Assembly: GCA_002753465.1 (NCBI GenBank)
Contig: PEAF01000004.1
Coordinates: 474 to 64,473 of the forward strand
Source: Candidatus Omnitrophota bacterium
Lineage (GTDB): Bacteria > Omnitrophota > Gorgyraeia > Zapsychrales > Fredricksoniimonadaceae
Direction of reading: 5' to 3'
DNA length: 64,000 nucleotides
Positions within the stretch are counted from its first letter, which is position 1. Every line of letters begins with the position of its first letter. Shown here in pieces: positions 37,906 through 55,461 of the stretch. The translations under genes and the position numbers were made by a program. The notes under the pieces were generated by a model. It ran no database searches, was not told the origin of the DNA, and was given only the letters and a program-made list of their open reading frames with translations.

Positions 37906-39069
37906 ATGAAGAGGCTGATGCATTTGTTGGGTTCCGCCGCATTTACGGCCGTGATCAGCACGGTCCTGATCGGGTTCTTTATTATATCTACATCGACTGA
38001 AGCCATGCATGGCAGCGTATTGTCGCAGGAGATCTTTTATAATGCCTGGTGGTTCGACCTGTTGGTTTCTTTATTATGGGTCAATATCTTCTTTTCCATC
38101 GTTGTGCGATGGCCGTTGTGCTGGCGGCAGACCGGATTTCTGATCACGCATGTCGGTATCCTGGGCATACTTTCCGGCGCTTTCATTATAAAATATTTCG
38201 TCGTTGACGGGCAATTGATGGTCGCTGAGGGGCAGAGGGTAGATTATTTTAAGCGCTCCGGCAAGATGCTGGCACGTACAGATAAGAAGGTTCCGTTTTG
38301 TCCTTTGGCCGTGAAAGGGCCTGTTAAGCTCCCTGCCCCTATCCTGAAGGTGATGGATAAAGAGGGCAAGGAATTACTGAGCTATACACTTGCCGTCGGG
38401 GATATCCCTGTAAAGATCAATATTCCGCAGACGGCATTTGAGATCGATGGACTGGCTTTTTATCCTTATGCTGCGGTTCAAGGCAAGGGTGTGCTGGTCA
38501 ATGATCCGGCAGGGCGCATGCCTAATCCGGCTGTGTCGTTTGACCTGATCGACAGCAAAGGGTTCGCTGTGCATCAGTTTGCATTTGCATTTTTCCCTGA
38601 TTTTAGTGCGATGCATCCCTCAGAGGAAAAGGGTGTGTCGGACCTGACGTTCCGTCTGGAAGCGGGAAAGCCTGAGGATTATACTGCATCCTCGGCTATG
38701 CCTGGTGGGGCCGCTGATCTTGCGCGGACAGATCGTTCGGAAGAGCTACCTTTTTCGCTGATGCTGAAAGATTTCCGTAAGATCGATTATCCTGGCACAA
38801 TGGAGGCGGCTGCTTTTGAGAGTGATGTTGTCCTGGAGGATAAAAAGAGCGGTGTAATGCTGGAGAAGACCATCAGCATGAACCATCCGCTGACGTATCA
38901 GGGTTACAAGATCTTTCAGATGTCGTATATTGATGACGGGGTCCACGGAAAAAGTTCCGTATTCACGGTGGCAAAAAATCCCGGGATACCGGTCGTATAT
39001 TTTAGTTCGTTTATAGCCTGCCTGGGTGCTTTATGGCAGTTTTATGGAAAAAGGTCTGAGGAGACATGA
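37906..39069 (+). CDS. ccsB: System II cytochrome c biogenesis protein (ResB/CcsB-like)
   Basis: N-terminal TM pair, a large periplasmic domain and a C-terminal TM segment (PGIPVVYFSSFIACLGALW). Precedes ccsA with a 4-nt overlap. The track start at 37747 is rejected. Confidence 0.6.
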   Translation: MKRLMHLLGSAAFTAVISTVLIGFFIISTSTEAMHGSVLSQEIFYNAWWFDLLVSLLWVNIFFSIVVRWPLCWRQTGFLITHVGILGILSGAFIIKYFVVDGQLMVAEGQRVDYFKRSGKMLARTDKKVPFCPLAVKGPVKLPAPILKVMDKEGKELLSYTLAVGDIPVKINIPQTAFEIDGLAFYPYAAVQGKGVLVNDPAGRMPNPAVSFDLIDSKGFAVHQFAFAFFPDFSAMHPSEEKGVSDLTFRLEAGKPEDYTASSAMPGGAADLARTDRSEELPFSLMLKDFRKIDYPGTMEAAAFESDVVLEDKKSGVMLEKTISMNHPLTYQGYKIFQMSYIDDGVHGKSSVFTVAKNPGIPVVYFSSFIACLGALWQFYGKRSEET

Positions 39070-40637
39070 TGAAAACAATATTGATCCTTGCTTTGGTATT
39101 CATGGGGTTTGTGGCGCCCGTCAGTGCGTCGCAGGTTGCAGGTTCCGTTGCTGTTGGTTTGATCCCCATTCAGCATGGCGGGCGCATCAAGCCTTTTGCC
39201 GCGTTTGCCCACGAACTTGTTCAGTCAATAACCGGCAAAGCCCGGTGGCAGGGATCTCCGGCGGTCGATGTGATCATGAGCCGTTTAGCCAGGCCCGAGC
39301 AATTTCTGGATGTCCCTTTCATCAGGATCGATCATCCCGGCTTAAAAGAAGCGCTGGGCATTCTATCGGAGAAGAAAAGCGTCTCGTACCATGAGCTGCA
39401 ACCAGTATTTAAGACCCTTGAGTCGATCGTGGCGCAAGCTTCGGTGAAGCGGCAGAAGGAAGAGAGGCTCTCTGCCCTTGAACAGCAGGCGGATATTCTT
39501 TATGAGCGTCTTGCTACAGTTGATCGCCTGAGCCGTGGAGAAATGATCACCGTTATGCCTGTTCCCGGCAAGACGGCATGGGCATCTCCTTTTACAAGCA
39601 ATATGGTTCAATCCAAATATTTCCTTCAACTTGTTAAAAATTATGCCGATAAAGACCCAAAAATTGTGACTCAGGTTGACCTTTGGATCGCATCCGTCGT
39701 GCCTTCACTGGAAAAAGACGGCTGGGAGAAGGTTAAAATGGAAGGCATCTATTATGCGATGGAGCCATTTTATTATGCCGGGATATTGTATCTTATCGGG
39801 TTTATCCTCTTAGTCTTTTCCGGATTGCGGATGCCGGATGCCGGATGCCTAGCGCTGTTCATCGGGTTTGTCTTCCATACGGCCGGGCTCCTGTTAAGAA
39901 CATATATTCTGTCGAGGCCGCCTGTCGCTAATATGTATGAGACCATGATCTTCATGGATTGGGTCCTTATGATCTGTGTCGGATGTTATGCGATCTTTCA
40001 GAAGCGTCGATCATTCTTGTCGAGCGGCGCGCTGGCAAGCGTCCTGGTGATGCTTTATGCGAATCTGCTCCCGGTTAGTAGCTCATTGGACGTCCTTTCT
40101 CCGGTTTTGCGCAGCAGTTATTGGTTAATGATCCATGTCATGACGATCATGGCCAGTTATAGTTTTTTTACGTTAGCCATGGCGATTTCTCACCGGTATT
40201 TATTTCTGGCAGCAACAGGGAAGCTGACGGCCGATGAGGACAAAGGGTCCGCGCTGGCCATTTACCGGATTTTGCAGGCGGGTTTGATCGCTTTAGGTGC
40301 GGGGACGATCTTGGGCGGCGTATGGGCCAATGAGACCTGGGGCCGGTTCTGGGGCTGGGACCCTAAAGAAACATGGGCGTTCATTACGTTTTTGGGGTAT
40401 ATGGCGATTTTGCACTTGCGTTACAGCCGTAAGCTTACGAATTGGGGTTTAGCGGTGGCCAGCCTTTTGGGATTCCTTCTGGTCCTGATGACATGGTATG
40501 GCGTGAATTTTGTCCTGGGGCGCGGCTTGCATAGTTATGGTGCAGGGTCGGGTGGTTTGGAATGGATCATGTTATTTTTGGTATTGGAGGCAGGATTCCT
40601 GGGTGGTATGATTTATTTAAGAAAGAGGAGGGGATAA
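39066..40637 (+). CDS. ccsA: System II cytochrome c biogenesis protein CcsA/ResC with an N-terminal periplasmic extension
   Basis: WWD motif WGRFWGWDPKETWAF and conserved His-bearing TM helices. Confidence 0.8.
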   Translation: MMKTILILALVFMGFVAPVSASQVAGSVAVGLIPIQHGGRIKPFAAFAHELVQSITGKARWQGSPAVDVIMSRLARPEQFLDVPFIRIDHPGLKEALGILSEKKSVSYHELQPVFKTLESIVAQASVKRQKEERLSALEQQADILYERLATVDRLSRGEMITVMPVPGKTAWASPFTSNMVQSKYFLQLVKNYADKDPKIVTQVDLWIASVVPSLEKDGWEKVKMEGIYYAMEPFYYAGILYLIGFILLVFSGLRMPDAGCLALFIGFVFHTAGLLLRTYILSRPPVANMYETMIFMDWVLMICVGCYAIFQKRRSFLSSGALASVLVMLYANLLPVSSSLDVLSPVLRSSYWLMIHVMTIMASYSFFTLAMAISHRYLFLAATGKLTADEDKGSALAIYRILQAGLIALGAGTILGGVWANETWGRFWGWDPKETWAFITFLGYMAILHLRYSRKLTNWGLAVASLLGFLLVLMTWYGVNFVLGRGLHSYGAGSGGLEWIMLFLVLEAGFLGGMIYLRKRRG

Positions 40638-40639
40638 CA

Positions 40640-40951
40640 ATGTTGAACATTGACCGACGCAAGGTTTTAATTTTGACCAGTGTTTTCATGCTGACGTCTT
40701 TGGGTGCTGTGCAAGCCACCCCTAAACAAAGGAAATTGTATAAAGAGGTGTTCCCGGATTCAAATCCTAAGTGCGCCTATTGTCATGATCTGGATAAGCC
40801 CAGGAAAGACGGGGAAAAGCTGTCTATGAATGATTATGGGATGGCGATCATAAAAGCGGCGCAAGATGCCCGGGAGACTAAAGACATGGAAGCCGTGCCT
40901 GTTGCTGAAACCTATAAAAAAGTAGGTCAAGTTGAAGATTTCAAGAAGTAA
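40640..40951 (+). CDS. Periplasmic monohaem c-type cytochrome
   Basis: Signal peptide MLNIDRRKVLILTSVFMLTSLGAVQA and a single CAYCH motif. Confidence 0.65.
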   Translation: MLNIDRRKVLILTSVFMLTSLGAVQATPKQRKLYKEVFPDSNPKCAYCHDLDKPRKDGEKLSMNDYGMAIIKAAQDARETKDMEAVPVAETYKKVGQVEDFKK

Positions 40952-41690
40952 AGTAGCTCTTCTTATAATTGGCGTAGCCGTATTTTTCATTGCGGGGATC
41001 ACGTATGCCTCCAGTGCCGGTAAGGCTCCTGTGACCGCGATCAAGGGTGCTACCTATGTCGGTTTGGAGACCTGTACGGCCTGTCACCGGAAAGAGGGAC
41101 GGGTTTATCCGGCGTCTTTGCACGCGAGGCTTGCGACCAGAGATGCTGATCAGGCTCAGGATTGTGAGATATGCCACGGTGCCGGCAGCATACACGCCGA
41201 TGACCCGAGGAAAAAAGGGAGTATCATCAATCCACGCAAGGATCCTGAGATCTGCCTGAGTTGCCATCAGGAAAAGCGCATGGAAGCCAAGTTGCCGTTC
41301 AGGCATCCGGTCCTGGAAGGCAAGATGGGTTGTACGGATTGTCATGAACCGCACGGAGCGGATCTCGTCGCCGGCGGAGCGTCCATGGAAAGTATGAATG
41401 AGGTTTGTTTCAAGTGTCATAAAGACCAGCAGGGCCCGGTGGTTTATGAGCATGCGGCCATGCGCGAAGGTTGCACAGAATGCCATAAGGTGCATGGTTC
41501 TATTTATGACAAAATGCTTAAGACCAGGGATGCCAATCTGTGTTTGCGTTGTCATGTGCAGGCTAATTTTCCTACAATCGGAGGGGGCGCGCATACGTCT
41601 AATTCGAGGATACCCCAGGGTGTATGTTTTTATGCCGGATGTCATACGGCGGTGCACGGGTCTAATTTTGATAAAACGCTGCGCTACTAA
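40932..41690 (+). CDS. Periplasmic multihaem c-type cytochrome (7 CXXCH + 1 CX4CH)
   Basis: CTACH, CEICH, CLSCH, CTDCH, CFKCH, CTECH, CLRCH, then CFYAGCH..HGSN. TTG start and signal-anchor KVALLIIGVAVFFIAG. Confidence 0.8.
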   Translation: MKISRSKVALLIIGVAVFFIAGITYASSAGKAPVTAIKGATYVGLETCTACHRKEGRVYPASLHARLATRDADQAQDCEICHGAGSIHADDPRKKGSIINPRKDPEICLSCHQEKRMEAKLPFRHPVLEGKMGCTDCHEPHGADLVAGGASMESMNEVCFKCHKDQQGPVVYEHAAMREGCTECHKVHGSIYDKMLKTRDANLCLRCHVQANFPTIGGGAHTSNSRIPQGVCFYAGCHTAVHGSNFDKTLRY

Positions 41691-41726
41691 GAGGGTGAGC
41701 ACATAGCACATATTTCTTTTAAACAC

Positions 41727-43817
41727 ATGCTCGGGCGTATTTTTTGCGGCGGTTGTATCTTCGTAGCCGGTGTTGCCGCGGCATCTGCTGAAAGTAAGGC
41801 GTCTGTCGAAATCACGCCTGCGGTCAAGGTTGTTGAGGTCAAAGGGGATGTTGCCAAATTCCGGGCCATCAGCGGTCAGAATGATCAGGGTTCTTCCGGC
41901 TTCAAGGATATTTCCATAGAGAGCGATATAAGCAAGGGTACCCGCATTACGATGAAGGGTGGCTATTTGCCGGAGGAGAATGATAATAACGGTACGGTCT
42001 TGATCACCCAAGATGATGTCGGGTTTATCCGGATGGATTACAATGCGCTGCGCCGGTATTACATGAATCAAGGGGGATATTATCCTTTTACGACGGCAGG
42101 CCTTCAGGTCATCCGCCTGACGCAGGATCTGAACATGGATATTGATAAGTTCAGTTTTGAGCTCGGCAACGGCACGCCGGATGATTCCACCCTCAGTGTG
42201 CAATATGATCGCAGGACTAAAAAGGGCATCAAGAACCGTTTGACCTGGGGAGGCGTTGTTTCGGGTTTGGCGACCAAATCGACGGCGCCGTCTTACAGTG
42301 AGCATGATGAAACAACCGACACGGTAACAGTTAAAAATAAATTTCAGGCCATGGGATTCACGGTTAAGGGTGCCCAGCAGTACGAATTCTTTCAGTCCAA
42401 TAAGAGCCGCACCGAGCAATGGTACAACGCTGCCATGGACACGCCTGCCAGTACGAATAAGAAAAGAGTGCAGTCGGACGACACACAGGCCAAGTCGTTA
42501 TCGACAACGCTTTTAGCGGATAAGTGGTCGCTGAATGACAAGACTTATCTGGCGGTTGGTTCGCGTTATTCGCACAACAGGACAAGTCAAATTGAGGTGC
42601 AGCGTGAGTATCAGGTTGATGGTACGCCGTGGGCCTATAGCCGTCCATATATTAAAGACGGGGGGGCCGATAACTTCGAGGATAAGTACACGTTGACGGG
42701 GAATTTGCTGTCCAATTTAAGCGACCGGTTGACATTTGGCACGAAGTTCAAGACTGATATGACATCTATCCGTGCGGCATCGACCCAGGGGGCTGATTGC
42801 GGCCCGGCGGATACGGTCTGTTCTTCTATCGCGGCTGCAGGTGTGTCGCCGGACGGTGTTGCCAATTATTACTATGATGGCTCGACTGAGAATAAGATCA
42901 TGGCAACGGCAGGCAGCTTCTCACTCAAGTACAGCGGCATTCCCAAGACCAGCCTTTATACCGACCTTGACCTGACGCATGAACGCAATTGGCTGTCTCT
43001 GGCCCGTATAGCTTATTTGGGGCAGGACGCTTCGTTGGCTACCAATACATCCGGGGATGCGTATCATGATATTATTAATCGCACAGCCGATATTACCAGC
43101 ACCGTCGGTGCGCGATTTACGCCGGTAAAGAATGTCACGACGACCGTAGAGTATAAGAATGGCGGTAAGAATGACAAGCTCGACAGGATCATTTACTCAA
43201 GTGATAGCGAAGCATACTTGAATACTTTACGCACGCGAAAAGAGGAGGTGGCCTCGCGGATCGCGTGGAAGCCTGTGAAGTGGTTCGAGAATTCATTTCG
43301 TTACAAGACGATAGGAAAAACATACAAGACCCAATATGCAGCCTTGGATATGGTCAAAAGCCAGCAGATGGAGCGGGATTATATTTATGATGTGACACTG
43401 ATCCCGACGGATGCGTTGATGTTCAATGTTGCTTATTTATTGCAACTTTATAAAACGTCGACTCCGGCCGCCCAGATGCAGACCGCAACCTATTTGCCGG
43501 CAACGACCGCGAATGTACATACATGGTCAGCAGGGATCAGTTATGCCCCGGTTCAGACGTTAAGCTTTTTCAATTCCTATGAATATTCCAGGGCCAAGAA
43601 CGCCAATAACGATTACATAGGTGATACAGGGACGGCCTTCTTATACGCGCCTGATAATGAATGGTACAATACCAGTCTGGGCGTTACGTGGTCGCCCAGG
43701 AAGTATTTGACCATTGAACCGCGCTATACCTATTATGGTTTTCGTTCGTACCAGTCTGTCGATACGGGCAATTATACGGCGCAGGCCTTATGGCTTGATG
43801 TTAATGTGATCTGGTAA
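41727..43817 (+). CDS. Outer-membrane beta-barrel protein, MtrB/PioB/OmbB-type porin candidate
   Basis: Signal peptide ..VAGVAAASA/ES. A ~670-aa mature chain rich in Tyr/Thr/Asn/Gly alternation. C-terminal ..LWLDVNVIW (aromatic terminus). Lies 36 nt after the multihaem cytochrome. Confidence 0.6.
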   Translation: MLGRIFCGGCIFVAGVAAASAESKASVEITPAVKVVEVKGDVAKFRAISGQNDQGSSGFKDISIESDISKGTRITMKGGYLPEENDNNGTVLITQDDVGFIRMDYNALRRYYMNQGGYYPFTTAGLQVIRLTQDLNMDIDKFSFELGNGTPDDSTLSVQYDRRTKKGIKNRLTWGGVVSGLATKSTAPSYSEHDETTDTVTVKNKFQAMGFTVKGAQQYEFFQSNKSRTEQWYNAAMDTPASTNKKRVQSDDTQAKSLSTTLLADKWSLNDKTYLAVGSRYSHNRTSQIEVQREYQVDGTPWAYSRPYIKDGGADNFEDKYTLTGNLLSNLSDRLTFGTKFKTDMTSIRAASTQGADCGPADTVCSSIAAAGVSPDGVANYYYDGSTENKIMATAGSFSLKYSGIPKTSLYTDLDLTHERNWLSLARIAYLGQDASLATNTSGDAYHDIINRTADITSTVGARFTPVKNVTTTVEYKNGGKNDKLDRIIYSSDSEAYLNTLRTRKEEVASRIAWKPVKWFENSFRYKTIGKTYKTQYAALDMVKSQQMERDYIYDVTLIPTDALMFNVAYLLQLYKTSTPAAQMQTATYLPATTANVHTWSAGISYAPVQTLSFFNSYEYSRAKNANNDYIGDTGTAFLYAPDNEWYNTSLGVTWSPRKYLTIEPRYTYYGFRSYQSVDTGNYTAQALWLDVNVIW

Positions 43818-43905
43818 CAACAGATACGGCATCGCTAAACGCCCTGGGCCGGAATCGATAAAAATTCTTGATTCGTTTATCCTTAGCATCCGCAGGATTA
43901 TTTTC

Positions 43906-43934
43906 TTGCAGAATACCGCTCTTCTCCATATAAT
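43906..43934 (+). promoter_or_regulatory. Sigma70-type promoter candidate for the hydrogenase operon
   Basis: TTGCAG-17 nt-TATAAT, about 77 nt upstream of ATG 44011. Confidence 0.5.
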
Positions 43935-44010
43935 CAGCCAATTCATAAGGGTCAGGAAGTTCATCCGAATAGTCCCGACTTAACCCGCATTAAACATCAG
44001 GAGTTTGTTT

Positions 44011-44487
44011 ATGGTCGTTGAAACCTTAAAAGACGACGTAAAAGCCGTTATTGAGCGTTGGAAGGATAAAGAGGGTAACCTCATCATGATCCTTCATGAT
44101 ATTCAGGACCGTTACGGGTATGTTCCGCGTGAGGCCGCGCTTGAAGTGTCGCGTCAGGCAGATATGCCGCTGGCGCGCATTTATGAGGTTCTTACGTTCT
44201 ACAATTATTTCAAGCTGACGCCTCCCGGCAAATTCACTATTTCGGTCTGTTTGGGTACGGCGTGTTATTTGAAGGGAGCTCCGGCTTTGATCGAGGAGAT
44301 CCGCCGTTTGCTTCAGGTGGATGAAGGGCATACGACCAAGGACGGTTTATTTCATCTGCAGATCGTCCGTTGCCTGGGTTGTTGCGGCTTGGCGCCGGTG
44401 ATCACGGTAGGGCACAAGGTTTACAGCGCGGTCAAGAGGACCGATGTGATGGGTATCATTGCCGAACATAAGACCGTTGAAGCTTAA
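44011..44487 (+). CDS. hydC: [FeFe]-hydrogenase NuoE-like [2Fe-2S] subunit (HydC/HndA)
   Basis: SVCLGTACYLKG and RCLGCCGLAP Cys pattern. AGGAG Shine-Dalgarno 8 nt before ATG 44011. Confidence 0.85.
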   Translation: MVVETLKDDVKAVIERWKDKEGNLIMILHDIQDRYGYVPREAALEVSRQADMPLARIYEVLTFYNYFKLTPPGKFTISVCLGTACYLKGAPALIEEIRRLLQVDEGHTTKDGLFHLQIVRCLGCCGLAPVITVGHKVYSAVKRTDVMGIIAEHKTVEA

Positions 44488-44530
44488 ATCGGCTGCGTGC
44501 GTTCGGCGTTAATTATTGAGGAGGGCCGTT

Positions 44531-44872
44531 ATGGCTATGACCAGGGAAGAATTAAATAAATTAAAATCAGCAGCGCAGTCCAATCCACCCAGGAACTGGA
44601 TCCGCGTGGGCTATAGCACATGCGGTGTGGCGGCGGGTGCCAAAGAAGTTCTTGATGTTCTCAACGAAGAGATCAAGGCGCACAACATGGATGTGATCGT
44701 CAAGAAATGCGGCTGTGTCGGGCTTTGCTCGGCCGAACCGCTGGTTGAGGTCAATATCGAAGGCGCCCCGCGCGTATTCTACGGCAAGGTCAATAAGGAC
44801 GTGGCCCGCAGGATCGTCGATGAACATGTTTGCCAGAAGAAGCTTGTTGAGAACCATATTTACGAGATCTAA
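44531..44872 (+). CDS. Thioredoxin-like [2Fe-2S] ferredoxin (HndB-like)
   Basis: GYSTCGVAAGA..KKCGCVGLCSAEP. GAGGAGG Shine-Dalgarno before ATG 44531. Confidence 0.7.
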   Translation: MAMTREELNKLKSAAQSNPPRNWIRVGYSTCGVAAGAKEVLDVLNEEIKAHNMDVIVKKCGCVGLCSAEPLVEVNIEGAPRVFYGKVNKDVARRIVDEHVCQKKLVENHIYEI

Positions 44873-44896
44873 CCCCGGATTAATAAGGAAAAAGAT

Positions 44897-46630
44897 ATGA
44901 AACGGATCCTTCTTCAAGATACCAATGGCAGCCTTAAAAAGGAATTACGTGATTTTCACGTGGCCTTTAGCAGTTACCTGCGGGATAACAACCTCGTGGA
45001 CAAGGCCCAGGTCGTTCTTGTGTCTGATATCGGCGTGTATAACAAGGGTATTGTGGCCAAGGTGCTGCCGGAAGGCTTCATTTATGTTAATTTGAACAGT
45101 GCCAATATTGCCGAGATCGTTGACAAGACCGTGGTCAAGGGTGAAAAGATCGATGCTTTGTCTTTTGAGAAAAAGAATAAGCAGATGCGTTTGGTCCTGC
45201 GCAATTGCGGTATCGTTGATCCTGAGAGCATTGAAGAGTATATCGCTGCTGATGGTTACCAGGGGCTGGCCAATGCCCTGGCCATGGGGCCTGAAAAGGT
45301 CATTGAGGAAATGAAGAAGTCAGGCTTGCGCGGCCGCGGCGGCGCAGGTTTCCCGACATGGATGAAATGGAATATCACCCGCGGCGTGAAGGGCGATGAG
45401 AAATATATTATCTGTAATGGCGATGAAGGCGACCCGGGCGCCTATATGGACCGTTCGGTGCTTGAGGGCGATCCTCATTCTGTCATTGAAGGTCTTATGA
45501 TCGGCGGCTTTGCGGTCGGTGCCAAGCACGGTATTTTCTATATTCGTGCTGAATATCCGCTGGCGGTTGAGCGTATCCAGAAAGCTATCGATGTGTGCCG
45601 CAGTAAGGGCATTATCGGCCAGAATATTTTCGGTTCCGGCTTTGATTTTGATGTTGAGATCCGCCTGGGTGCAGGCGCTTTCGTGTGCGGCGAAGAGACG
45701 GCGCTGATCGCGTCCGTTGAAGGGTTGCGCGGCTATCCGCGCCCGCGTCCGCCGTTCCCATCGGTCAAGGGCGTATGGGGCAAGCCTACGGTCATCAACA
45801 ATGTTGAGACGTTAGCCAATATTCCTTATATCCTGTTTAAAGGCGGTGCTGAATTCGGCAAGGTCGGCACCGAAGGTTCCAAGGGGACCAAGGTTTTCGC
45901 TCTCACCGGCAAGGTCAAGAATTCAGGTTTGGTCGAAGTCCCCATGGGTACAACGCTGCGCGAGATCGTTTTCGATATCGGCGGCGGCGTCCTTAACAAT
46001 CACGCCATCAAGGCGATCCAGACCGGCGGTCCGTCGGGCGGCATGATCCCGTCGCAGTTTTTTGATACGGCTGTGGAATATGAAAGCCTGCAGAAGCTCG
46101 GCTCCATCATGGGATCGGGCGGCATGATCGTTATGGATGAGTTCGATTGCATGATCGATATCTCCAAGTTCTATCTGGGTTTTTGCGTGGATGAGTCCTG
46201 CGGCAAGTGCGCGCCGTGCCGTATCGGCGGGACGCAGATGCTGGCGATCCTTAAAAAGATCTCCGAAGGCAAGGGTGAGCCCGAGGATATGGTCAAGCTC
46301 AATCAGATCGCCCAGGCGATGCAGAAGGCTTCCTTGTGCGGGTTGGGTCAGACAGCGGCGAATCCTGTTCTCTCGACCATGAAGTATTTTGAAGATGAAT
46401 ATAAAGCGCACGTCATTGATAAGAAATGCCCGTCCTGCAAGTGCCCGAGCCTTGTAGTGTACAGCATCAATAAGGAACGCTGCACGGGTTGCAGTTTGTG
46501 CGCACGTAACTGTCCGGTCAATGCCATTTCAGGTGACCGTCAGAGCAAGTACACGGTCGATACGGCCAAGTGCATCGGGTGTGCGAACTGTTATGAAGCA
46601 TGTAAATTCAACGCGATTGTGCGTCAATAG
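44897..46630 (+). CDS. hydB: [FeFe]-hydrogenase NuoF-like flavoprotein subunit (HydB/HndC)
   Basis: GLRGRGGAGFPT, ESCGKCAPCR, and two C-terminal CxxCxxCxxxCP motifs (CTGCSLCARNCP, CIGCANCYEAC). Confidence 0.9.
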   Translation: MKRILLQDTNGSLKKELRDFHVAFSSYLRDNNLVDKAQVVLVSDIGVYNKGIVAKVLPEGFIYVNLNSANIAEIVDKTVVKGEKIDALSFEKKNKQMRLVLRNCGIVDPESIEEYIAADGYQGLANALAMGPEKVIEEMKKSGLRGRGGAGFPTWMKWNITRGVKGDEKYIICNGDEGDPGAYMDRSVLEGDPHSVIEGLMIGGFAVGAKHGIFYIRAEYPLAVERIQKAIDVCRSKGIIGQNIFGSGFDFDVEIRLGAGAFVCGEETALIASVEGLRGYPRPRPPFPSVKGVWGKPTVINNVETLANIPYILFKGGAEFGKVGTEGSKGTKVFALTGKVKNSGLVEVPMGTTLREIVFDIGGGVLNNHAIKAIQTGGPSGGMIPSQFFDTAVEYESLQKLGSIMGSGGMIVMDEFDCMIDISKFYLGFCVDESCGKCAPCRIGGTQMLAILKKISEGKGEPEDMVKLNQIAQAMQKASLCGLGQTAANPVLSTMKYFEDEYKAHVIDKKCPSCKCPSLVVYSINKERCTGCSLCARNCPVNAISGDRQSKYTVDTAKCIGCANCYEACKFNAIVRQ

Positions 46631-46641
46631 GAGTGAATCCA

Positions 46642-48402
46642 ATGTCGACGGTAACTAAGATCAAAGCCATTATCAACGGGATCCCTGTCGAGGTCGATCA
46701 GGGCGCCACGATCCTTGAGGCGGCGCATAAAGCCCAGGTCAATATCCCGACACTTTGCAAACATCCTGACCTGGTTGCTTCGGCAGGTTGCGGTATTTGC
46801 ATTGTGAAGATCAAGAATAATCGCAAGATGCTGCGCGCATGTTGTACGCCTCTTGAGGAAGGCATGGATATCATGACCCATGACCCCGAGATCGTACAGA
46901 CCCGCCGTACGGTGCTTGAGCTCATCCTTTCCAATCACCCGACGGATTGCCTGGTGTGCGGACGCAACAACGACTGCGAATTGCAGAAGATCTGTGCTGA
47001 ATTCGGTATCCGTGATGACCGTTTTGAGCGTATCCTTCCTAATATCCCGGTTGATAGTTCGACCAAGACGATCATTTTGGAGCCGAGAAAATGCATCAAG
47101 TGCAGCCGGTGCATCGATGCGTGCCAGAACATGCAGGATGTATGGGCGCTTTCATATGTGGATCGCGGGTTTAAAACGCGCATGGCACCTTCCGGCGACA
47201 TCAAGCTGGCGGAATCCCCGTGCGTGCGTTGCGGCCAGTGTGCGGCGCATTGCCCGACGGGCGCTATTTGCGAGAATGACGAGACCCAGAAGGTGTGGCA
47301 GCTCTTGCAGGATCCGGATAAGCATTGCGTGGTGCAGATCGCACCCGCGGTGCGTGTGGCGGTAGGTGAAGGGTTTGGTTATCCTGTCGGAACGAATTTG
47401 ACCAAGAAGCTTTATGCCTTGTTGCGCCGCCTTGGTTTCAAGGCCGTATTTGATACTAACTTCGGCGCTGATTTGACGATCATGGAAGAAGGCACGGAAT
47501 TTGTAGAGCGTTTTGTCAACAAAAAGGGCCCTTTACCGCTGATCACCAGCTGCTGCCCGGCGTGGGTTGATTATCTTGAGAAGTATTATGGTGATACCAT
47601 TAGCCTTTTCTCATCGGCTAAGAGTCCGCATGAGATGGTGGGTGCTTTGGCCAAGACGTATTACGCGCAGAAAAAGAATATCGATCCTTCCAAGATGAAG
47701 GTCATTTCCATTATGCCGTGCACGGCCAAGAAGTATGAGATCTCACGTACCGAAGAAATGTCAGCTTCCGGTTTTCAGGATGTTGACGTATCGTTGACGA
47801 CCCGTGAGCTCATTCGCATGATCAAACAGGCTGGTATTGACTTCAAGCAGCTTCCTGATGAAGATGCGGATCTTATGCTGGGTGATTATGCAGGGGCAGG
47901 CACGATCTTTGGTGCGACGGGTGGTGTTATGGAAGCGGCTCTGCGTACAGCTTACTTTGCCATTACGGGTGAGAATTTGAAGGATGTGAATTTCACGGCT
48001 GTGCGTGGTTTACAGGGTGTTAAAGAAACGACGATCAATATCAAGGGTACGGATGTTAAGATCGCGGTGGCGCATGGTTTGAAGAATGTAAAATATGTTA
48101 TGGATAAGGTACGCGATGCGCTTAAGAACAATCAGCCGCCTCCGTATCATTTCATTGAGGTTATGGCATGTCCCGGCGGTTGTGTTGGCGGCGGCGGTCA
48201 GCCGTATATGGTGACCGATGATATCCGCAAGCAGCGCGCGAAGGGTCTTTATGAAGAGGACGCCAACCTGCCGCATCGCTGTTCGCATGAGAATCCGTAT
48301 GTTGCACAATTATACAAGGATTTTCTGGAGAAGCCGTTGTCACATAAGTCGCACAAGCTTCTTCATACGAAGTACGTTTCACGTCCGTTGTATACGCGCT
48401 AA
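46642..48402 (+). CDS. hydA: [FeFe]-hydrogenase catalytic subunit, multi-cluster (group A, bifurcating-type architecture)
   Basis: N-terminal 2Fe-2S and 4Fe-4S Cys motifs. H-cluster motifs TSCCPAW, MPCTAKKYE and EVMACPGGCVGGGGQP. Confidence 0.9.
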   Translation: MSTVTKIKAIINGIPVEVDQGATILEAAHKAQVNIPTLCKHPDLVASAGCGICIVKIKNNRKMLRACCTPLEEGMDIMTHDPEIVQTRRTVLELILSNHPTDCLVCGRNNDCELQKICAEFGIRDDRFERILPNIPVDSSTKTIILEPRKCIKCSRCIDACQNMQDVWALSYVDRGFKTRMAPSGDIKLAESPCVRCGQCAAHCPTGAICENDETQKVWQLLQDPDKHCVVQIAPAVRVAVGEGFGYPVGTNLTKKLYALLRRLGFKAVFDTNFGADLTIMEEGTEFVERFVNKKGPLPLITSCCPAWVDYLEKYYGDTISLFSSAKSPHEMVGALAKTYYAQKKNIDPSKMKVISIMPCTAKKYEISRTEEMSASGFQDVDVSLTTRELIRMIKQAGIDFKQLPDEDADLMLGDYAGAGTIFGATGGVMEAALRTAYFAITGENLKDVNFTAVRGLQGVKETTINIKGTDVKIAVAHGLKNVKYVMDKVRDALKNNQPPPYHFIEVMACPGGCVGGGGQPYMVTDDIRKQRAKGLYEEDANLPHRCSHENPYVAQLYKDFLEKPLSHKSHKLLHTKYVSRPLYTR

Positions 48403-48511
48403 CGGGTGGTCCTGATCCGTCGGGGGTTGACCCGGGCGGTGAGGGAAATAAAAATTAAGTGTCTGCGGTAAGGGCAAGGCCTGAAACCAAGGGAAGTGAC
48501 AATAAGATCAC

Positions 48512-48556
48512 ACAGCCCCGGTTTTATGCTTTGCATAAGATCGGGGCTGTTTGTTT
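48512..48556 (+). terminator. Rho-independent terminator after hydA
   Basis: acagccccg-(loop with nested ttatgc/gcataa)-cggggctgt followed by ttgttt. Confidence 0.7.
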
Positions 48557-48557
48557 A

Positions 48558-48602
48558 GCGGGTCCTGGCACTGTCGTGATGCCCTTGCCGTCTTTCGAAG
48601 TC
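48558..48602. repeat. Inverted-repeat arm A (partner 50415-50459)
   Basis: gcgggtcctggcactgtcgtgatgcccttgccgtctttcgaagtc. Its reverse complement matches arm B at 40 of 45 positions (hand alignment). Confidence 0.85.
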
Positions 48603-48631
48603 GGATGGCTAAATACATAAGGGGAATTGAT

Positions 48632-48880
48632 ATGAGCAAACGTTTAGGTTTTGTAGGTATTATCATAGAAAATCGTGTTAAGGCAGCACCATTGGTGAAC
48701 AAGATCCTTTCTGAGTATGGCGATGAGATCGTGGCCCGGGTCGGCTTGCCGTATAAAGAGCGTCATTGCAGCGTTATTACGCTGACGGTCGATATGACAA
48801 CCGATGAACTGGGCGCATTGACGGGTAAGCTGGGTGCAGTTGAGGGCGTGATGGTCAGATCGGCATTAGCCAAGGCATAA
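48632..48880 (+). CDS. TM1266-like ACT-fold protein (putative iron-only hydrogenase system regulator family)
   Basis: MSKRLGFVGIIIENRVKAAPLVNKILSEYGDEIVARVGLPY.. About 82 aa, sitting in front of aspA and the hyd maturases as in Thermotoga/Clostridia clusters. The track start at 48551 lies in the terminator. Confidence 0.65.
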   Translation: MSKRLGFVGIIIENRVKAAPLVNKILSEYGDEIVARVGLPYKERHCSVITLTVDMTTDELGALTGKLGAVEGVMVRSALAKA

Positions 48881-48882
48881 AT

Positions 48883-50253
48883 ATGGAATTTCGCACAGAA
48901 CATGACATGTTGGGTGAGAAGAATATTCCGCTGAAAGCTTATTGGGGCATTCATACGCAACGTGCATTGGAGAATTTCCCTTTGTATTCTGGTGTTGTGT
49001 CGTTGCCACTGATGAAAGCCATGGCCATGGTCAAGAAAGCCTGTGCGCTGGCGAATAAGGACTTGGGATATTTAACACCTGAGAAAGCTTCAGTCGTTAT
49101 AAGTGTGTGCGATGAGATCATGGCTGGCAAGTTGAATGACCAGTTTCCCCTGGATGCACTGCAGGGCGGGGCGGGGACATCGACGAACATGAATTTGAAT
49201 GAGGTCATCGCCAATCGCGGCCTCGAGATCATGGGGCGCGCCAGGGGTGATTATGCGGCGCTCCATCCTTTGGAGGATGCGAATCTACATCAATCGACCA
49301 ATGATGTTTATCCGACGGCGCTGAAGGTGGCTTTAATCCTGGGTGTTAGGTCTTTAAGCGAGACAACAGCGCTGCTGCAAGGTGCTTTTCAGCGTAAGGA
49401 AAAAGAATTCGCCGGTATCATCAAGTTGGGGCGTACCGAGATGCAGGATGCCGTGCCGATCACCTTAGGCGCTGAGTTTTCCGGCATGGCTGAAGCGGTT
49501 TCGAGAGACCGCTGGAGAACGTTTAAATGTGAGGAGCGCTTACGGGTGGTTAATATTGGCGGCACAGCCGTGGGGACAGGGCTTGGTGCGCCGCGTGATT
49601 ACATTTTTCTGGTCATTGAGAAGTTGCGTGAGGTTACAGGGCTTGGTGTTTGCCGGGCTGAGAATATGATGGGCGATACGGCGCATGCGGATACGTTCGT
49701 TGAGGTGTCAGGGATACTCAAGGCGCATGCCGTCAATATCCTGAAGATCTCGAATGACTTGCGCTTGATGAATATGCTGGGTGAAATTGTGTTGCCATCG
49801 GTGCAGGCTGGCTCATCGATCATGCCGGGCAAAGTTAATCCTGTGATATTAGAGGCAGTGTCGCAGGCCGGCCTTAAAGTGATCGCGCAGGACGGTCTTG
49901 TAACGCAAGCGGCATCGCGCGGCACCGGGCAGATCATTGAATTCATGCCGCTATTGGCGGATGCGCTTTTAGGGGCGGTTGATCTTTTGGTCAAGGCGGA
50001 TGGGATGCTGACAGCACATATCGATGGGATCAAAGCGGATGAAGATCGCTGCCGGCATTATGTTGACAGAAGCCGGACGCTCATTACGGCGTTTGTTCCT
50101 GTGGTGGGGTATGACCGTTGTCAGGCCTTGCTGAAAGAATTTGATGATATTAAGGAAGATAATTTGCGTGCGTTCCTTAACCGGAGGTTGGGTGTGGAGA
50201 TTGTCAATAAAACATTGGCGCCGCATAATCTTGTCGGATTAGGACATAGATAA
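48883..50253 (+). CDS. aspA: Aspartate ammonia-lyase (class II fumarase/aspartase family)
   Basis: TEHDMLGEKNIPLKAYWGIHTQRALENFP and signature GSSIMPGKVNP. Confidence 0.8.
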   Translation: MEFRTEHDMLGEKNIPLKAYWGIHTQRALENFPLYSGVVSLPLMKAMAMVKKACALANKDLGYLTPEKASVVISVCDEIMAGKLNDQFPLDALQGGAGTSTNMNLNEVIANRGLEIMGRARGDYAALHPLEDANLHQSTNDVYPTALKVALILGVRSLSETTALLQGAFQRKEKEFAGIIKLGRTEMQDAVPITLGAEFSGMAEAVSRDRWRTFKCEERLRVVNIGGTAVGTGLGAPRDYIFLVIEKLREVTGLGVCRAENMMGDTAHADTFVEVSGILKAHAVNILKISNDLRLMNMLGEIVLPSVQAGSSIMPGKVNPVILEAVSQAGLKVIAQDGLVTQAASRGTGQIIEFMPLLADALLGAVDLLVKADGMLTAHIDGIKADEDRCRHYVDRSRTLITAFVPVVGYDRCQALLKEFDDIKEDNLRAFLNRRLGVEIVNKTLAPHNLVGLGHR

Positions 50254-50400
50254 TGATTCGCCAAGCTTTGGCCCTCGTTCATGCCCTGTGGCTCAGACAG
50301 TCCTCGCGCATCCGCTTTTGAAGGATGTTGAATGAGGAAGGAACGCGGATGGCTGCGGAACTCGCCCTTAGGGCATTGAACTTCGGGCCGCTTGTTGAAT
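50254..50400 (+). repeat. Structured intergenic repeat, copy 2
   Basis: tgattcgccaagctttggccctcgttcatgccctgtggctcagacagtcctcgcgcatccgc...gcggatggctgcggaactcgcccttagggcattgaacttcgggccgcttgttgaat. Confidence 0.9.
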
Positions 50401-50414
50401 GAAATACGCGAGAC

Positions 50415-50459
50415 GCCTTCGAAAGACGACAAGGGCATCACGACGGCGGCAGGACCCGC
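50415..50459. repeat. Inverted-repeat arm B (partner 48558-48602)
   Basis: gccttcgaaagacgacaagggcatcacgacggcggcaggacccgc. Sits in a ~66-nt insert that copy 2 carries relative to copy 3. Confidence 0.85.
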
Positions 50460-50489
50460 GAAGCGACTGTGAAGGATGAGAGGAATATT

Positions 50490-51749
50490 ATGGATAAAAC
50501 ACCAAAATCATTAAGGCTTCAGATCGGCATTTTCGGCCGGACCAATGTGGGCAAGTCAAGTTTGCTTAACATGGTCGCGGGGCAGGACGTGGCCATTACA
50601 TCCGCTGTGGCTGGGACGACGACAGATGTGGTGGAGAAGGCCATGGAACTGCTGCCATTAGGCCCCGTGATGTTCCTGGATACGGCAGGGCTTGATGATG
50701 ATTCTCTCCTGGGGGAAAAGCGTATTGAGCGCACACGGCGCGCGCTGGACCGCTGTGATATTGCTTTGTTAGTCGTTGAGCCCGGGATCTGGGGGGTATG
50801 CGAAGTGCAGTTTGCTGAAGAGCTTAAGGCTAAAAAGAAGCCACTGATCATTGTTATTAATAAGGCGGACATAAAGTCGATCGCTGATGATTTCATGCAA
50901 GTTCTTCAAGCGATAACAGATAAGGTTATCGTTGGTTCAAGCGTCGTCACGGCCCAGCGCGAAGCATTTTTACAGGCGTTCAAGCTTTGCCTGATCCAGA
51001 CCTGTCCGGAGGATTTTTTAAGACCGCCGACGCTATTGGGGGATCTTGTTCCCGCTGGTGGCGTGGCCGTTCTGGTCGTGCCGATCGATCTGCAGGCGCC
51101 GAAGGGGCGACTCATACTGCCGCAGGTGCAGGCGATCCGTGACGGACTGGATAATGATGCTGTTGTAGCGGTTGTTAAGGAGCGTGAGTATGCGGCGTTC
51201 CTGCAGAATCTAAAAAGTAAGCCTGCGGTGGTTGTGTGCGACTCACAGGTGGTAATGAAAATGGTCGCAGATACGCCCTTGGATGTGAAATGCACGACAT
51301 TCTCGATTCTTTTCGCGCGATACAAGGGCGATCTGGTCGAGATGGCCAAAGGTGCGGCGCATATTGAAGCGCTCAAACCGGGGGATAAGGTCCTGATCGC
51401 GGAAAGTTGTTCACATCATGCGGCTGAAGATGATATCGGACGGGTCAAGATCCCGCGCTGGCTGCGTCAATATGTCGGCGGTGATCTGGTGGTCGATCAT
51501 TTTGCGGGACGTGATTATCCCAAGGACCTTGAACAGTACAAACTTATTGTGCACTGCGGTTCGTGTATGTTAACGCGTGGTGAGATGTTGTGGCGTATCC
51601 ATCAGGCCAAAGAAAGAGGAGTACCGATTACAAATTATGGCGTCGGGATATCTTTAGTTCAGGGTGTATTGAAACGTGTTCTTTCGCCATTTCCGGCGGC
51701 GTTGGATGCGTTTGAAAAAGAAGTAGCTCAGGTAATTTCCGCGCTATAG
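50490..51749 (+). CDS. hydF: [FeFe]-hydrogenase maturation GTPase
   Basis: GRTNVGKSSLLN G1 motif. C-terminal cluster motif ESCSHH...HCGSC. The track start is GTG 50469. Confidence 0.9.
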   Translation: MDKTPKSLRLQIGIFGRTNVGKSSLLNMVAGQDVAITSAVAGTTTDVVEKAMELLPLGPVMFLDTAGLDDDSLLGEKRIERTRRALDRCDIALLVVEPGIWGVCEVQFAEELKAKKKPLIIVINKADIKSIADDFMQVLQAITDKVIVGSSVVTAQREAFLQAFKLCLIQTCPEDFLRPPTLLGDLVPAGGVAVLVVPIDLQAPKGRLILPQVQAIRDGLDNDAVVAVVKEREYAAFLQNLKSKPAVVVCDSQVVMKMVADTPLDVKCTTFSILFARYKGDLVEMAKGAAHIEALKPGDKVLIAESCSHHAAEDDIGRVKIPRWLRQYVGGDLVVDHFAGRDYPKDLEQYKLIVHCGSCMLTRGEMLWRIHQAKERGVPITNYGVGISLVQGVLKRVLSPFPAALDAFEKEVAQVISAL

Positions 51750-51972: not shown

Positions 51973-53520
51973 ATGCCGAAAGCTTTAGAAATCAGGAAAG
52001 ATAAACAAGTTAGAGGTGGTCATATGAATAAAGCGACAGGATTGAATGGATGGGCTGGTCAGCGGATCAAGCCGGATCAGATAACGAAGTACATGGACCA
52101 GGGCCGTGATTTTATTAATGACGGCGATATTGAAGCTAAGCTCGCGGCGTTCTCGGGTGAGCCTGAACCGGCGCAGGTGCGCGCTATTCTGGCTAAATCT
52201 ATGGCCGTTAAGGACCTTTCGCTCGATGAGGTGGCGATCCTTATCAGGGTCAATGACAAGAAGATGCTTGAGGAAATGCGTCAGACCGCGTTGGCCCTCA
52301 AGATCAAGATCTATGACAATCGTATTGTGACCTTCGCGCCCTTTTATTTAGGTAATTATTGCGTGAACAGATGCGCGTATTGCGGGTTCAATAACGATAA
52401 TACGGCAGCGACACGCACAGTACTAGATACAGATGCTATCCGCCGGGAAATTGCGGTCCTCGCGGGAGAGATTGGGCACAAGCGCCTTATTGCGGTCTAT
52501 GGCGAGCATCCAAAGAATGATGTTGATTATGTGATCGAAAGCCTTAAAACGATCTATTCGGTCAAGGTCAAGACCAAGAACGGCACAGGAGCAATCCGAC
52601 GGGTCAATGTTAACGCACCTCCTTTTTCTATTGAGGACCTCAAGAAGATCAATGAGGCGGGCATCGGTACGTATCAGGTTTTTCAGGAGACCTATCATAA
52701 AGAGACCTATGCCAAGATGCATCCGGCAAATACGATCAAAGGCGATTATAACTGGCGCTTGTACAGCATGCATCGCGCCATGGAGGCGGGCATTGATGAT
52801 GTCGGTATCGGCGCGCTTTTTGGGCTTTATGACTGGCGTTTTGAACTGATGTCACTTGTTTGCCACACCCAGGCGCTTGAAAAGCGCATGGGCATTGGCG
52901 CGCATACGATCTCATTCCCGCGCGTGGTACCGGCGCTTAATTCCGTGATCACGCCAGACTGGCCGTATCTTGTTTCTGATGATGATTTTAAGAAGATCAT
53001 GATGATCATCCGTCTGGCCGTGCCTTACACCGGCATGATCGTGACGGCGCGCGAAAAGGCCGAGATACGTAACGAGGCTGTCTTGATGGGCATCACCCAG
53101 ATGGACGCATCATCGCGCATTGCTGTCGGTGGGTATTCTGATTGTGTGACCGCCCAGAAGGAGGACAAACAGCAGTTTATTTTGGGGGATACACGTTCTT
53201 TGGATGAACTTATCCGTGATCTGGCGCAGATGGGCTTTATCACATCTTTTTGCACCGCGGGCTATCGTTGCGGACGTACCGGCAAATGCATCATGGATCT
53301 TTTAAGAAGCGGCACCGAGGGGAAGTTCTGCAAGCTTAATGCCGTGCTCACATTTCAGGAATGGCTGGATGATTTTGCCACAGAGGACACACGACGCCTG
53401 GCGCAGCCGCTCATCGACCGTGAGGTCGCTGAGATCAAGGCCAAGAATCCGCAGACGCTGGATATCTTTATGAATTATTATGAGCGGGTGAAGAAGGGTG
53501 AGAGGGATCTTTATTTATAA
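51973..53520 (+). CDS. hydG: [FeFe]-hydrogenase maturation radical SAM tyrosine lyase
   Basis: CVNRCAYCGF (CX3CX2C) and a C-terminal Cys region FCTAGYRCGRTGKC..FC. Alternative ATG 52024 sits behind AGAGGTGG. Confidence 0.88.
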   Translation: MPKALEIRKDKQVRGGHMNKATGLNGWAGQRIKPDQITKYMDQGRDFINDGDIEAKLAAFSGEPEPAQVRAILAKSMAVKDLSLDEVAILIRVNDKKMLEEMRQTALALKIKIYDNRIVTFAPFYLGNYCVNRCAYCGFNNDNTAATRTVLDTDAIRREIAVLAGEIGHKRLIAVYGEHPKNDVDYVIESLKTIYSVKVKTKNGTGAIRRVNVNAPPFSIEDLKKINEAGIGTYQVFQETYHKETYAKMHPANTIKGDYNWRLYSMHRAMEAGIDDVGIGALFGLYDWRFELMSLVCHTQALEKRMGIGAHTISFPRVVPALNSVITPDWPYLVSDDDFKKIMMIIRLAVPYTGMIVTAREKAEIRNEAVLMGITQMDASSRIAVGGYSDCVTAQKEDKQQFILGDTRSLDELIRDLAQMGFITSFCTAGYRCGRTGKCIMDLLRSGTEGKFCKLNAVLTFQEWLDDFATEDTRRLAQPLIDREVAEIKAKNPQTLDIFMNYYERVKKGERDLYL

Positions 53521-53522
53521 CA

Positions 53523-53676
53523 ATCTCGACAAGCTTTGGCCCTCGTTCATGCCCTGTGGCTCAGACAGTCCTCGCGCATCCGTTTCTTCAGGATTTTGAG
53601 GGCGGAGGAAGAAAACGGATGGCTGTGGAACTCGCCCTTAGGGCATTGAACTTCGGGCCGCTTGTTGGCTGTGAAG
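53523..53676 (+). repeat. Structured intergenic repeat, copy 3
   Basis: ctcgacaagctttggccctcgttcatgccctgtggctcagacagtcctcgcgcatccgtttcttc...gaagaaaacggatggctgtggaactcgcccttagggcattgaacttcgggccgcttgttggc. Confidence 0.9.
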
Positions 53677-54819: not shown

Positions 54820-55461
54820 GTGCTTTTCGTGTCTAAAGATCCCGTCGTATCTCGCTCCACATTGAAAAGATTGCCCCTGTACCTTCATTTGCTTGAGGCG
54901 CTTTTGGCTCAGGGCGTTGAGTGTGTTTCATCGACGCAGCTTGCCCGGGAGTTTAATTTTAATCCGACCCAGGTGCGCAAGGACCTTGAGGTGACCGGCG
55001 AAGTGGGTAAGGCGCGCGTCGGCTTTCGTGTGGCCGGCCTTGTGGTGCGTATCCGTGACTTTTTGGGATGGAACAGCACGCATGACGCTGTTTTGGTCGG
55101 TGTCGGCAATATGGGAAAAGCGCTTTTAGGGTATAAGGACTTCGAGAAGTACGGTCTCAACATAGTCGCTGCTTTCGACAAGGATGTGCGCAAGGTGGGG
55201 GCAACGACATTTGACCGTGAAGTTTTGCCGTTGGCACAATTGCCTAAATTTATCAAGCGCACTAAGGTCCATATCGGCATTTTAACCGTCCCGGCGCGTG
55301 AGGCACAGCCGGTGGTCGATCTTATGCTGGCTGCCGGTATTAAGGCCATATGGAACTTTGCGCCAGCCCCGCTGCGTATCCCTGCGGGTGTTATCCTTGA
55401 AAATGCCCGTTTGACCCAAAGCCTTGCCGTCCTAACAAGTCATCTTACCCATCAAAATTAA
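54820..55461 (+). CDS. rex: Redox-sensing transcriptional repressor Rex
   Basis: RSTLKRLPLYLHLLE..VSSTQLA..NPTQVRKDL winged helix, and the VLVGVGNMGKALLGY Rossmann motif. Confidence 0.85.
   Translation: MLFVSKDPVVSRSTLKRLPLYLHLLEALLAQGVECVSSTQLAREFNFNPTQVRKDLEVTGEVGKARVGFRVAGLVVRIRDFLGWNSTHDAVLVGVGNMGKALLGYKDFEKYGLNIVAAFDKDVRKVGATTFDREVLPLAQLPKFIKRTKVHIGILTVPAREAQPVVDLMLAAGIKAIWNFAPAPLRIPAGVILENARLTQSLAVLTSHLTHQN

Follow-up and report, generated by a model that had tools for sequence, protein, structure and literature searches.

An inverted-repeat pair in the hyd maturase operon

The DNA analysed here, a 64-kb stretch of a Candidatus Omnitrophota contig (PEAF01000004.1; hereafter 'the window'), carries a [FeFe]-hydrogenase operon in which hydB and hydA are followed by a TM1266-like gene, an aspartate ammonia-lyase-like gene (aspA) and the hydrogenase maturase genes hydF, hydG and hydE (Table 1). 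Two segments of this operon, one lying between an intrinsic-terminator-like hairpin and the TM1266-like gene ('arm A'), the other upstream of hydF ('arm B'), form a long inverted-repeat pair that brackets the TM1266-like and aspA genes, and it is the nature of this pair that concerns us here.

Both arms were found where a first-pass annotation, made from the sequence alone, had quoted them (48558-48602 and 50415-50459), and the match that it claimed between the former and the reverse complement of the latter, 40/45 identical positions, was recovered exactly. A terminator scan likewise placed the terminator-like hairpin directly 5' of arm A, as had been proposed, and arm B does end 30 nt before the hydF ATG (50490); arm A is indeed close to the start codon of the TM1266-like gene (ATG at 48632), although the spacing is 29 nt and not the 30 nt given earlier. 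A repeat search extends the pair to 48555-48618 and 50399-50462, two arms of 64 nt that are 80% complementary and 1780 nt apart, making it the longest inverted pair both in this region and in the window as a whole.

The second-best reverse-complement match to the 45-mer anywhere in the 64 kb reaches only 24/45, BLASTN aligns arm A with arm B at an E-value of 1e-11 whilst finding no third copy of the 45-mer in the window, and a binomial estimate over all position pairs in the window puts the expected number of matches of at least 40/45 at ~1e-9. The inverted-repeat pair is real, and lies beyond chance. That the match is nonetheless a chance similarity, or an artefact of assembly, can for practical purposes be dismissed: alongside these figures, with no point to be counted in favour, an NCBI record (JADGAA010000010.1, from GCA_015232235.1) holds the identical sequence, being 100% identical to window 38883-50707 and ending inside hydF ~250 nt past arm B, at a point where the window itself reads on without a break, and arm A is kept in another species in two independent assemblies (L001 and L002).

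Table 1. Features of the hyd operon and associated repeats (window coordinates unless a related locus is named).
Feature	Position	Strand	Details
hydB, NuoF-like	44897-46630		Pfam
hydA, [FeFe]-hydrogenase	46633-48402		Pfam
Conserved leader hairpin motif	48458-48500	+	hydA-TM1266 spacer; aligned in 7 Omnitrophota loci; context, not part of the repeat
Leader motif in related loci	L001 6416-6458; L003 3539-3582; L011 5408-5460; L012 6623-6676; L016 5553-5603; L018 5644-5686		
Intrinsic-terminator-like hairpin and T-run	48512-48557 (hairpin 48512-48550)	+	18 pairs, loop 3, tail TTGTTTAGCG; terminator scan
Unit A (includes arm A)	48558-48609	+	52 nt; solo left arm of element E; TA on both sides
TM1266-like gene	48632-48880	+	82 amino acids; Pfam PF21699, E = 3.2e-28
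aspA, aspartate ammonia-lyase-like (Lyase_1)	48883-50253	+	456 amino acids; Pfam PF00206, E = 4e-78
145-nt hairpin repeat, copy 2	50254-50404	+	direct-repeat families D1, D2
Unit B (includes arm B)	50407-50459	-	53 nt; inverted copy of truncated left arm; TA on inner side, GA on outer
Tail common to repeat copies 2 and 3, with ribosome-binding site	50467-50484	+	CTGTGAAGGATGNRAGGA; direct-repeat family D20, 18 nt, 89%
hydF	50490-51749	+	Pfam HydF_tetramer, HydF_dimer, MMR_HSR1
hydG	51973-53520		Pfam
145-nt hairpin repeat, copy 3	53522-53667		upstream of hydE
hydE	end at 54720		Pfam
Rex-type redox regulator	54820-55461		directly 3' of hydE; Pfam Put_DNA-bind_N + CoA_binding
145-nt hairpin repeat, copy 1	5975-6120		44 kb away; between NTP-transferase and DegT-type aminotransferase genes
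145-nt hairpin repeat in L001	11384-11529		

A 184-nt palindromic element in the closest relative

The operon was compared with that of eight related Omnitrophota lineages for which gene tables were available, with AspA identities to the window ranging from 85% to 67%. The genes hydB-hydA-TM1266-aspA-hydF-hydG-hydE lie on one strand and in the same order in all eight loci, a constancy that favours the account of the arms given below, whilst arm-like sequence occurs in just one of them, the closest relative (L001/L002). Because the position and orientation of the TM1266-like and aspA genes do not change even in genomes lacking the arms, the comparison indicates that the two genes are old residents of the hyd operon, and not a mobile or invertible cassette.

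It is the closest relative, with an AspA 85% identical to that of the window, which sheds most light on arm A, since it has an arm A homologue after the terminator at the same site. In L001, the inverted partner of this homologue is local, ~80 nt off, and the two together make up a 184-nt palindromic element (L001 6512-6695; 'element E'), which ends in perfect 12-nt terminal inverted repeats (ATGTTTAGCGGG / CCCGCTAAACAT), has imperfect arms of ~45 nt and TA on either side, and is predicted to fold as one long stem (minimum free energy, MFE, -74.7 kcal/mol; z = -4.9). Unit A of the window, which includes arm A, is identical to the left arm of element E at 48/52 positions, 38 of them consecutive, and at this site the window corresponds to element E minus 132 nt that lie, in L001, between two CGCTAA repeats. 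Units A and B of the window each keep only one terminus of the element. Empty sites are also found: in L012 and L018 the T-run of the terminator runs directly into the ribosome-binding site (RBS) and ATG, as it does with 34 nt in L011, and excising the element from either the window or L001 gives back TTTAAA (compare ATTTAAAGGAGG in L012). Both the missing 132 nt and the empty sites speak for an insertion that was subsequently shortened.

The arms carry few other recognisable signals. Open reading frames (ORFs) in the arm regions look incidental, with arm A open in frame with the TM1266 ORF and ORFs on the minus strand overlapping both arms; a promoter scan returned nothing at either arm, and searches of the window, L001 and L003 against Rfam 15 gave no match at gathering score, with only noise at E <= 5 in the arm regions and the L001 element. 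An integron attC site was considered and rejected, as the ends of element E read GTTTAGC ... GCTAAAC, the reverse of attC (5'-RYYYAAC ... GTTRRRY-3'), and there is no integrase among the window ORFs scanned. Similarly, a sigma-54 or sigma-70 promoter in arm A was discarded: TGGCAC is there, but with a GG-to-GC spacing of 12 instead of 10, and the L001 sequence reads TGACAC.

Arm B is absent from every relative among the related Omnitrophota loci compared. In L001 the aspA-hydF spacer is occupied by another palindromic repeat, of 261 nt; in L003 it contains a small perfect palindrome, and in L011, L012 and L018 other hairpins, whilst in L016 it measures 2 nt and in the P0004 contigs the two genes overlap. 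To judge from these contents, the spacers of the hyd operon clearly act as insertion sites for several unrelated hairpin-forming repeat families.

Two of these families can be described a little further. One, to which the 261-nt repeat of L001 belongs and whose ends are GGCCTTGTGGTAC...GTACCGCAAGGCC, is present in L001 at 8372-8632 (aspA-hydF) and as a fragment at 11541-11583 (hydG-hydE), and recurs in L003 at 3728-3862, in the hydA-TM1266 spacer and in opposite orientation, with 83% identity between L001 and L003. The other comprises near-perfect small palindromes at L003 5562-5629 (aspA-hydF) and 8523-8571 (hydG-hydE), which have a common core, GTAGAGACG...CGTCTCTAC, and a REP-like look.

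Arm B and the 145-nt hairpin repeat

Arm B belongs to the tail of copy 2 of the 145-nt hairpin repeat (Table 1). Copies 2 and 3 do have in common, as the first-pass annotation had it, a body (50254-50397 in copy 2) and a tail (CTGTGAAGGATG) which in copy 3 abut one another; the insert said to hold arm B in copy 2 is also there, but extends over 69 nt (50398-50466) where ~66 nt (50401-50466) had been given. Copies of this repeat begin at or just past stop codons inside operons, and the tail CTGTGAAGGATG includes a TGTGAA half-site.

Unit B, of which arm B is part, is built on the same plan as unit A (GCGGG...CGC(G), with TA after it), and its reverse complement matches unit A at 44/52 positions overall, in keeping with a common origin. 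Its alignment scores are 68 against unit A, 60 against the L001 left arm and 27 against the L001 right arm; because it matches the left arm far better than the right, we take unit B to be an inverted copy of the truncated left arm, and the same scores eliminate the alternative that arm B is the displaced right arm of an ancestral element. Unit B has TC at positions 6-7 in common with unit A and C at position 50 in common with L001, which suggests that it branched off the window lineage before the last change in unit A.

A model for the origin of the pair

Taking these observations together, we think it on balance somewhat probable that a palindromic insertion element resembling a MITE (miniature inverted-repeat transposable element) left the arms behind as two inverted remnants of ~52 nt, and that their mutual complementarity is a by-product. 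Element E, which on this model was mobile, would have inserted at a TA between a conserved attenuator-type terminator and the TM1266 RBS. The window lineage would then have lost 132 nt, comprising the loop and the right arm, between the two CGCTAA microhomologies, the change presumably having run in this direction, to leave the solo left arm that is now arm A; a copy of the truncated unit, by whatever route it was made, would subsequently have landed in inverted orientation upstream of hydF, at a TA within the 145-nt repeat's tail, so giving arm B. The bracket around TM1266-aspA may in that case mean simply that only these two spacers of the operon tolerate insertions, and would mark neither a cassette nor a switch. 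Pairing of the arms within a read-through mRNA is physically possible, but would be a by-product with probably no function of its own.

Bacterial MITEs are <200 bp in length, with terminal inverted repeats and often TA at their termini, give rise to long stem-loop transcripts and occur as size variants that differ by internal deletions, and the stems derived from them are known RNase III or mRNA-stability elements (PMC2229807). Element E has the size, the terminal inverted repeats, the filled and empty sites and, by its predicted fold, the stem-loop transcript; by analogy it 'works like and looks like a MITE', without being a proven member of the class.

A number of observations nevertheless weigh against this model. 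Between two genomes whose synonymous sites are saturated (43-48% identity at four-fold degenerate positions, over five genes), unit A and the L001 left arm still agree at 92% of positions, and an old orthologous insertion would have decayed over such a distance; unit A must therefore either be under constraint or owe its presence to a recent, independent insertion into that same TA. The right arm of L001 is far more diverged than the left, an asymmetry which hints at constraint on the left arm. As to the dispersal that defines MITEs, two half-copies occur in the 64-kb window and one full copy in 15 kb of L001, with no further copy in ~80 kb of related loci, and all known copies are inside the hyd operon; nor is there a transposase among the 50 ORFs of the window (Pfam). 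Unit B is bordered on the outside by GA instead of TA, and its inner end can be placed only to within a few nt, whilst the TA flanks of element E and unit A might instead belong to the terminal repeat. Reconstruction of an empty site for arm B against the tail of the L001 repeat copy gave scores of 21 versus 22, too close to decide the matter.

The force of the first of these points depends on how the repeats of these genomes behave in general. Copies of the 145-nt repeat are 87-92% identical within and between the two species, and a non-orthologous pair (92%) is more alike than the pair occupying the same slot (87%); the family common to L001 and L003, 83% identical in differing slots and orientations, behaves likewise. 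Repeat families are hence highly identical at non-orthologous sites too, and cross-species identity is therefore a property of the family. Such identity fits mobile elements that were recently active or exchanged, and does not by itself prove a site-specific function for the arms, yet the conservation of arm A, along with the decayed right arm of L001, keeps a functional reading alive.

Wider searches for copies of the element gave the following. A profile search (nhmmer) with the full L001 element found the known arms only, in the window and related loci, and viral contigs, plasmids and phages held no match to the arm pattern. The pattern GTGATSCCCTTGNCGTCTTNCG had 7 matches, in unrelated phyla, among the GTDB representative genomes, and GATGCCCTTGNCGTCTTTCGAAG one chance match, in coding sequence, among the JGI metagenomes, collections that evidently contain neither the source species nor that of L001. 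These matches were rejected as copies of the element: they are 22-23 nt long, lie in coding sequence for a '..KDGKGIT..'-like peptide and show no likeness past the pattern. Since all are in coding sequence and the similarity is confined to the pattern, those from GTDB are best put down to codon-driven chance, a reminder that exact-pattern matches of 22-23 nt can come from codon usage. In the unrelated G+C-rich genomes that hold these chance matches (L004-L010 and L014), the arm core always encodes (K/E)D(G/D/A)KGI(T/L).

Alternative explanations

The first-pass annotation had proposed that the arms might form a long-range RNA duplex, creating an RNase III-type site or coupling the expression of cistrons, that they might be paired operators, or that they might mark an invertible or mobile two-gene cassette. 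As a physical possibility the duplex stands. The A:B duplex has a predicted energy of -89.8 kcal/mol, against -15.7 and -17.1 kcal/mol for the single arms, which fold weakly, and the MFE fold of 48403-50520 includes an A:B helix of 47 pairs and gains 56 kcal/mol over the best fold whose spans are limited to <=600 nt; the folding model thus makes the helix possible, and strongly favoured if one transcript spans both arms. What comparison does not bear out is the RNase III site or the coupling of cistrons, with arm B present in no relative, and the conservation and covariation of both arms that might have been looked for among relatives failed to appear, arm A being found in one, where it is paired locally. 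We accordingly regard as unlikely, though deserving of thought, a selected long-range mRNA duplex that loops out TM1266-aspA and serves as an RNase III-type site or a stabilising stem setting relative expression of the maturase genes, with arm B having taken the place of a lost local partner of arm A. Beyond the energy of the helix and its presence in the MFE of a 2.1-kb transcript, such a role would be consistent with the 92% conservation of arm A against saturated synonymous sites, with the left arm having a partner in both genomes (locally in L001), with the placing of that partner's outer end, in the window and L001 alike, 24-30 nt 5' of a start codon, and with the RNase III and mRNA-stability roles known for MITE-derived stems (PMC2229807). 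Against it, arm B is confined to one species and neither arm is found in six other Omnitrophota lineages; there is no relative in which covariation could be read, and just 1 of the 5 mismatches in the core is a G-U wobble in plus-strand RNA; the sequence of arm A is conserved beyond the needs of pairing alone; the helix would be opposed by ribosomes on 1.6 kb of intervening ORFs and by the terminator just upstream; and equally high cross-species identity is seen in repeat families at non-orthologous sites. A more specific form of the proposal, in which the left-arm module is a partner-requiring cis-element of the maturase operon, a downstream inverted copy replaced the local partner, and the selected duplex sets the stoichiometry of the accessory proteins relative to HydF/G/E, we would call distinctly improbable. 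Were the RNA duplex to be real, it would represent a rare kilobase-range mRNA duplex in place of a local hairpin.

The sequence conservation just mentioned would also suit a protein-binding site, that is, a ~52-nt double-stranded DNA operator for a hyd-specific regulator, whose inverted pair would permit looping, or control of both the TM1266 and the hydF start. The 38 consecutive nt that are identical between the window and L001, the occurrence of the unit in either orientation (as suits a DNA site), the confinement of all known copies to the hyd maturase operon and a Rex-type regulator gene 4.4 kb downstream can all be cited for it; but neither an internal dyad nor a recognisable Rex-type box is seen in the unit, most relatives keep the operon and lack the unit, it stands 3' of a terminator and probably inside a transcription unit, not at a promoter (the scan for promoters being blank at the arms), and no candidate binding protein emerged. 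Comparative support for paired operators is likewise wanting, arm B occurring in no relative and the partner of arm A being local (~80 nt) in L001, and in our judgement an operator is very improbable. Lower still is the standing of the two-gene cassette, whose recombination or transposition ends the arms would be. That 45-bp inverted repeats flank exactly two genes does invite the idea, which the related loci contradict: TM1266 and aspA have the same position and orientation in 8/8 loci, 7/8 of them without repeats, arm-like sequence being confined to one, and in that one (L001) both arms are on one side of the genes. The independent NCBI record of the same species (JADGAA010000010.1) has the same orientation, the attC-like core sites are in the wrong order, and a Pfam scan of 50 window ORFs bears out the earlier statement that no recombinase is present, and gave no transposase domain either. 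We therefore hold a cassette to be extremely improbable.

If the arms are indeed remnants of a MITE-like element, as we favour, the locus shows how small palindromic insertion elements and deletions at microhomologies can together build a long inverted repeat around genes, and warns against over-annotating such inverted pairs as the boundary of a switch or a cassette. The comparison further reveals, in uncultured Omnitrophota, a hyd operon rich in repeats, with repeat families ~90% identical between species whose synonymous sites are saturated.

A conserved leader hairpin upstream of the TM1266-like gene

The spacer between hydA and the TM1266-like gene contains a further conserved feature, distinct from the repeat. 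The stretch 48403-48557 comprises ~100 nt between the hydA stop codon and the terminator, and then the terminator itself. In those ~100 nt lies a motif, YCUGMGG-N-MAGRGC-[variable hairpin]-GCYURAANCYAAGGGR, that is conserved in all seven Omnitrophota loci compared as DNA; the terminator comes next, and where the spacer is unoccupied the TM1266 RBS follows immediately. RNAalifold predicts from the 7 loci a three-tier hairpin with compensatory changes and a covarying terminator (93.7% of cells paired, with double, compensatory changes in 2/9 pairs), and a covariance model finds exactly one match per locus, at 38-54 bits, with none elsewhere in 142 kb. The motif has no match in Rfam, and is absent from a Smithellaceae locus which also lacks the TM1266-like gene. 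Hairpin and terminator together look like a hitherto undescribed candidate attenuator or riboswitch for the hydrogenase maturase genes, and make a more promising lead than the inverted repeat.

Pairing between arm A and this leader was also considered. The arm A core UGCCCUUGCCGU (48581-48592) can form 12 bp with GCGGUAAGGGCA (48466-48477), the 5' half of the leader motif, and the local MFE fold of the window has the terminator enclosed by this pairing; the pairing is less strong in L001 and near chance, and was set aside.

Gene context

Downstream of the Rex-type regulator come nrdG and then nrdD (Pfam). The AspA-like protein is 100% identical to P0001 of a Candidatus Omnitrophica metagenome-assembled genome. 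In L001 and L003 the Rex-type gene is absent directly after hydE, and in the P0008/P0009 contigs it is present further downstream. On the other side of the operon, genes for cytochrome c biogenesis and multihaem cytochromes (ResB, CcsA-type, Paired_CXXCH; 37747-43817) form a block in the window between the hyd operon and radical-SAM + FMN_bind/Fer4 genes, which in L001, L012 and the P0008/P0009 contigs are directly upstream of hydC. Towards the end of the window, four tandem 36-nt units, two of them identical, stand at 60442-60588 inside an ORF (60115-60621) and encode an Ala/Pro/Glu-rich stretch; an ORF of >990 amino acids begins at about 61.0 kb and runs past the window end.

Comparison with known systems

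Invertible segments of the Hin/Gin or fimS type resemble the window in having inverted repeats that flank a DNA segment. Here, by contrast, the window contains no recombinase, no second orientation has been seen and the arms are longer than the usual recombination sites, whilst the enclosed genes are ordinary members of the operon that are in place in repeat-free relatives. The RNase III stems that flank rRNAs offer a likeness of another kind, in that complementary segments kilobases apart pair and loop out the sequence between them, as the arms here might do; those stems, however, are conserved and covarying across taxa and their loop is untranslated, whereas here one arm is species-specific and the loop consists of two translated ORFs. 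REP and BIME sequences of E. coli are operon-internal repeats, present singly or as inverted pairs, that are able to act as mRNA stabilisers. A single REP is a compact G+C-rich palindrome, unlike the single arm here, which folds weakly, and no RAYT-type transposase was seen.

Element E may also be likened to the ERIC and RUP sequences of enterobacteria and pneumococcus, which lie between genes as imperfect palindromes of 100-130 bp, have TA as their target, are transcribed within operons with reported effects on the stability of the flanking mRNA and, in the case of RUP, are thought to be mobilised in trans by a transposase of the IS630 type (PMC2229807). Their terminal repeats are of 7-9 bp, as against inverted arms of ~45 nt in element E, and the window ORFs include no cognate insertion sequence or transposase. 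The Correia (NEMIS) elements, MITEs of Neisseria, number hundreds of copies per genome whereas element E is known from three sites in one operon; there is no sequence similarity between the two, and the window copies are half-elements whose stem would be a long-range one of 1.8 kb instead of a local one. Like element E, on the other hand, Correia elements are small non-coding palindromes with terminal inverted repeats and TA at their termini, situated between genes; they are co-transcribed with those genes, come in longer and shorter variants distinguished by an internal segment, and give long RNA stems open to cutting by RNase III (PMC2229807).

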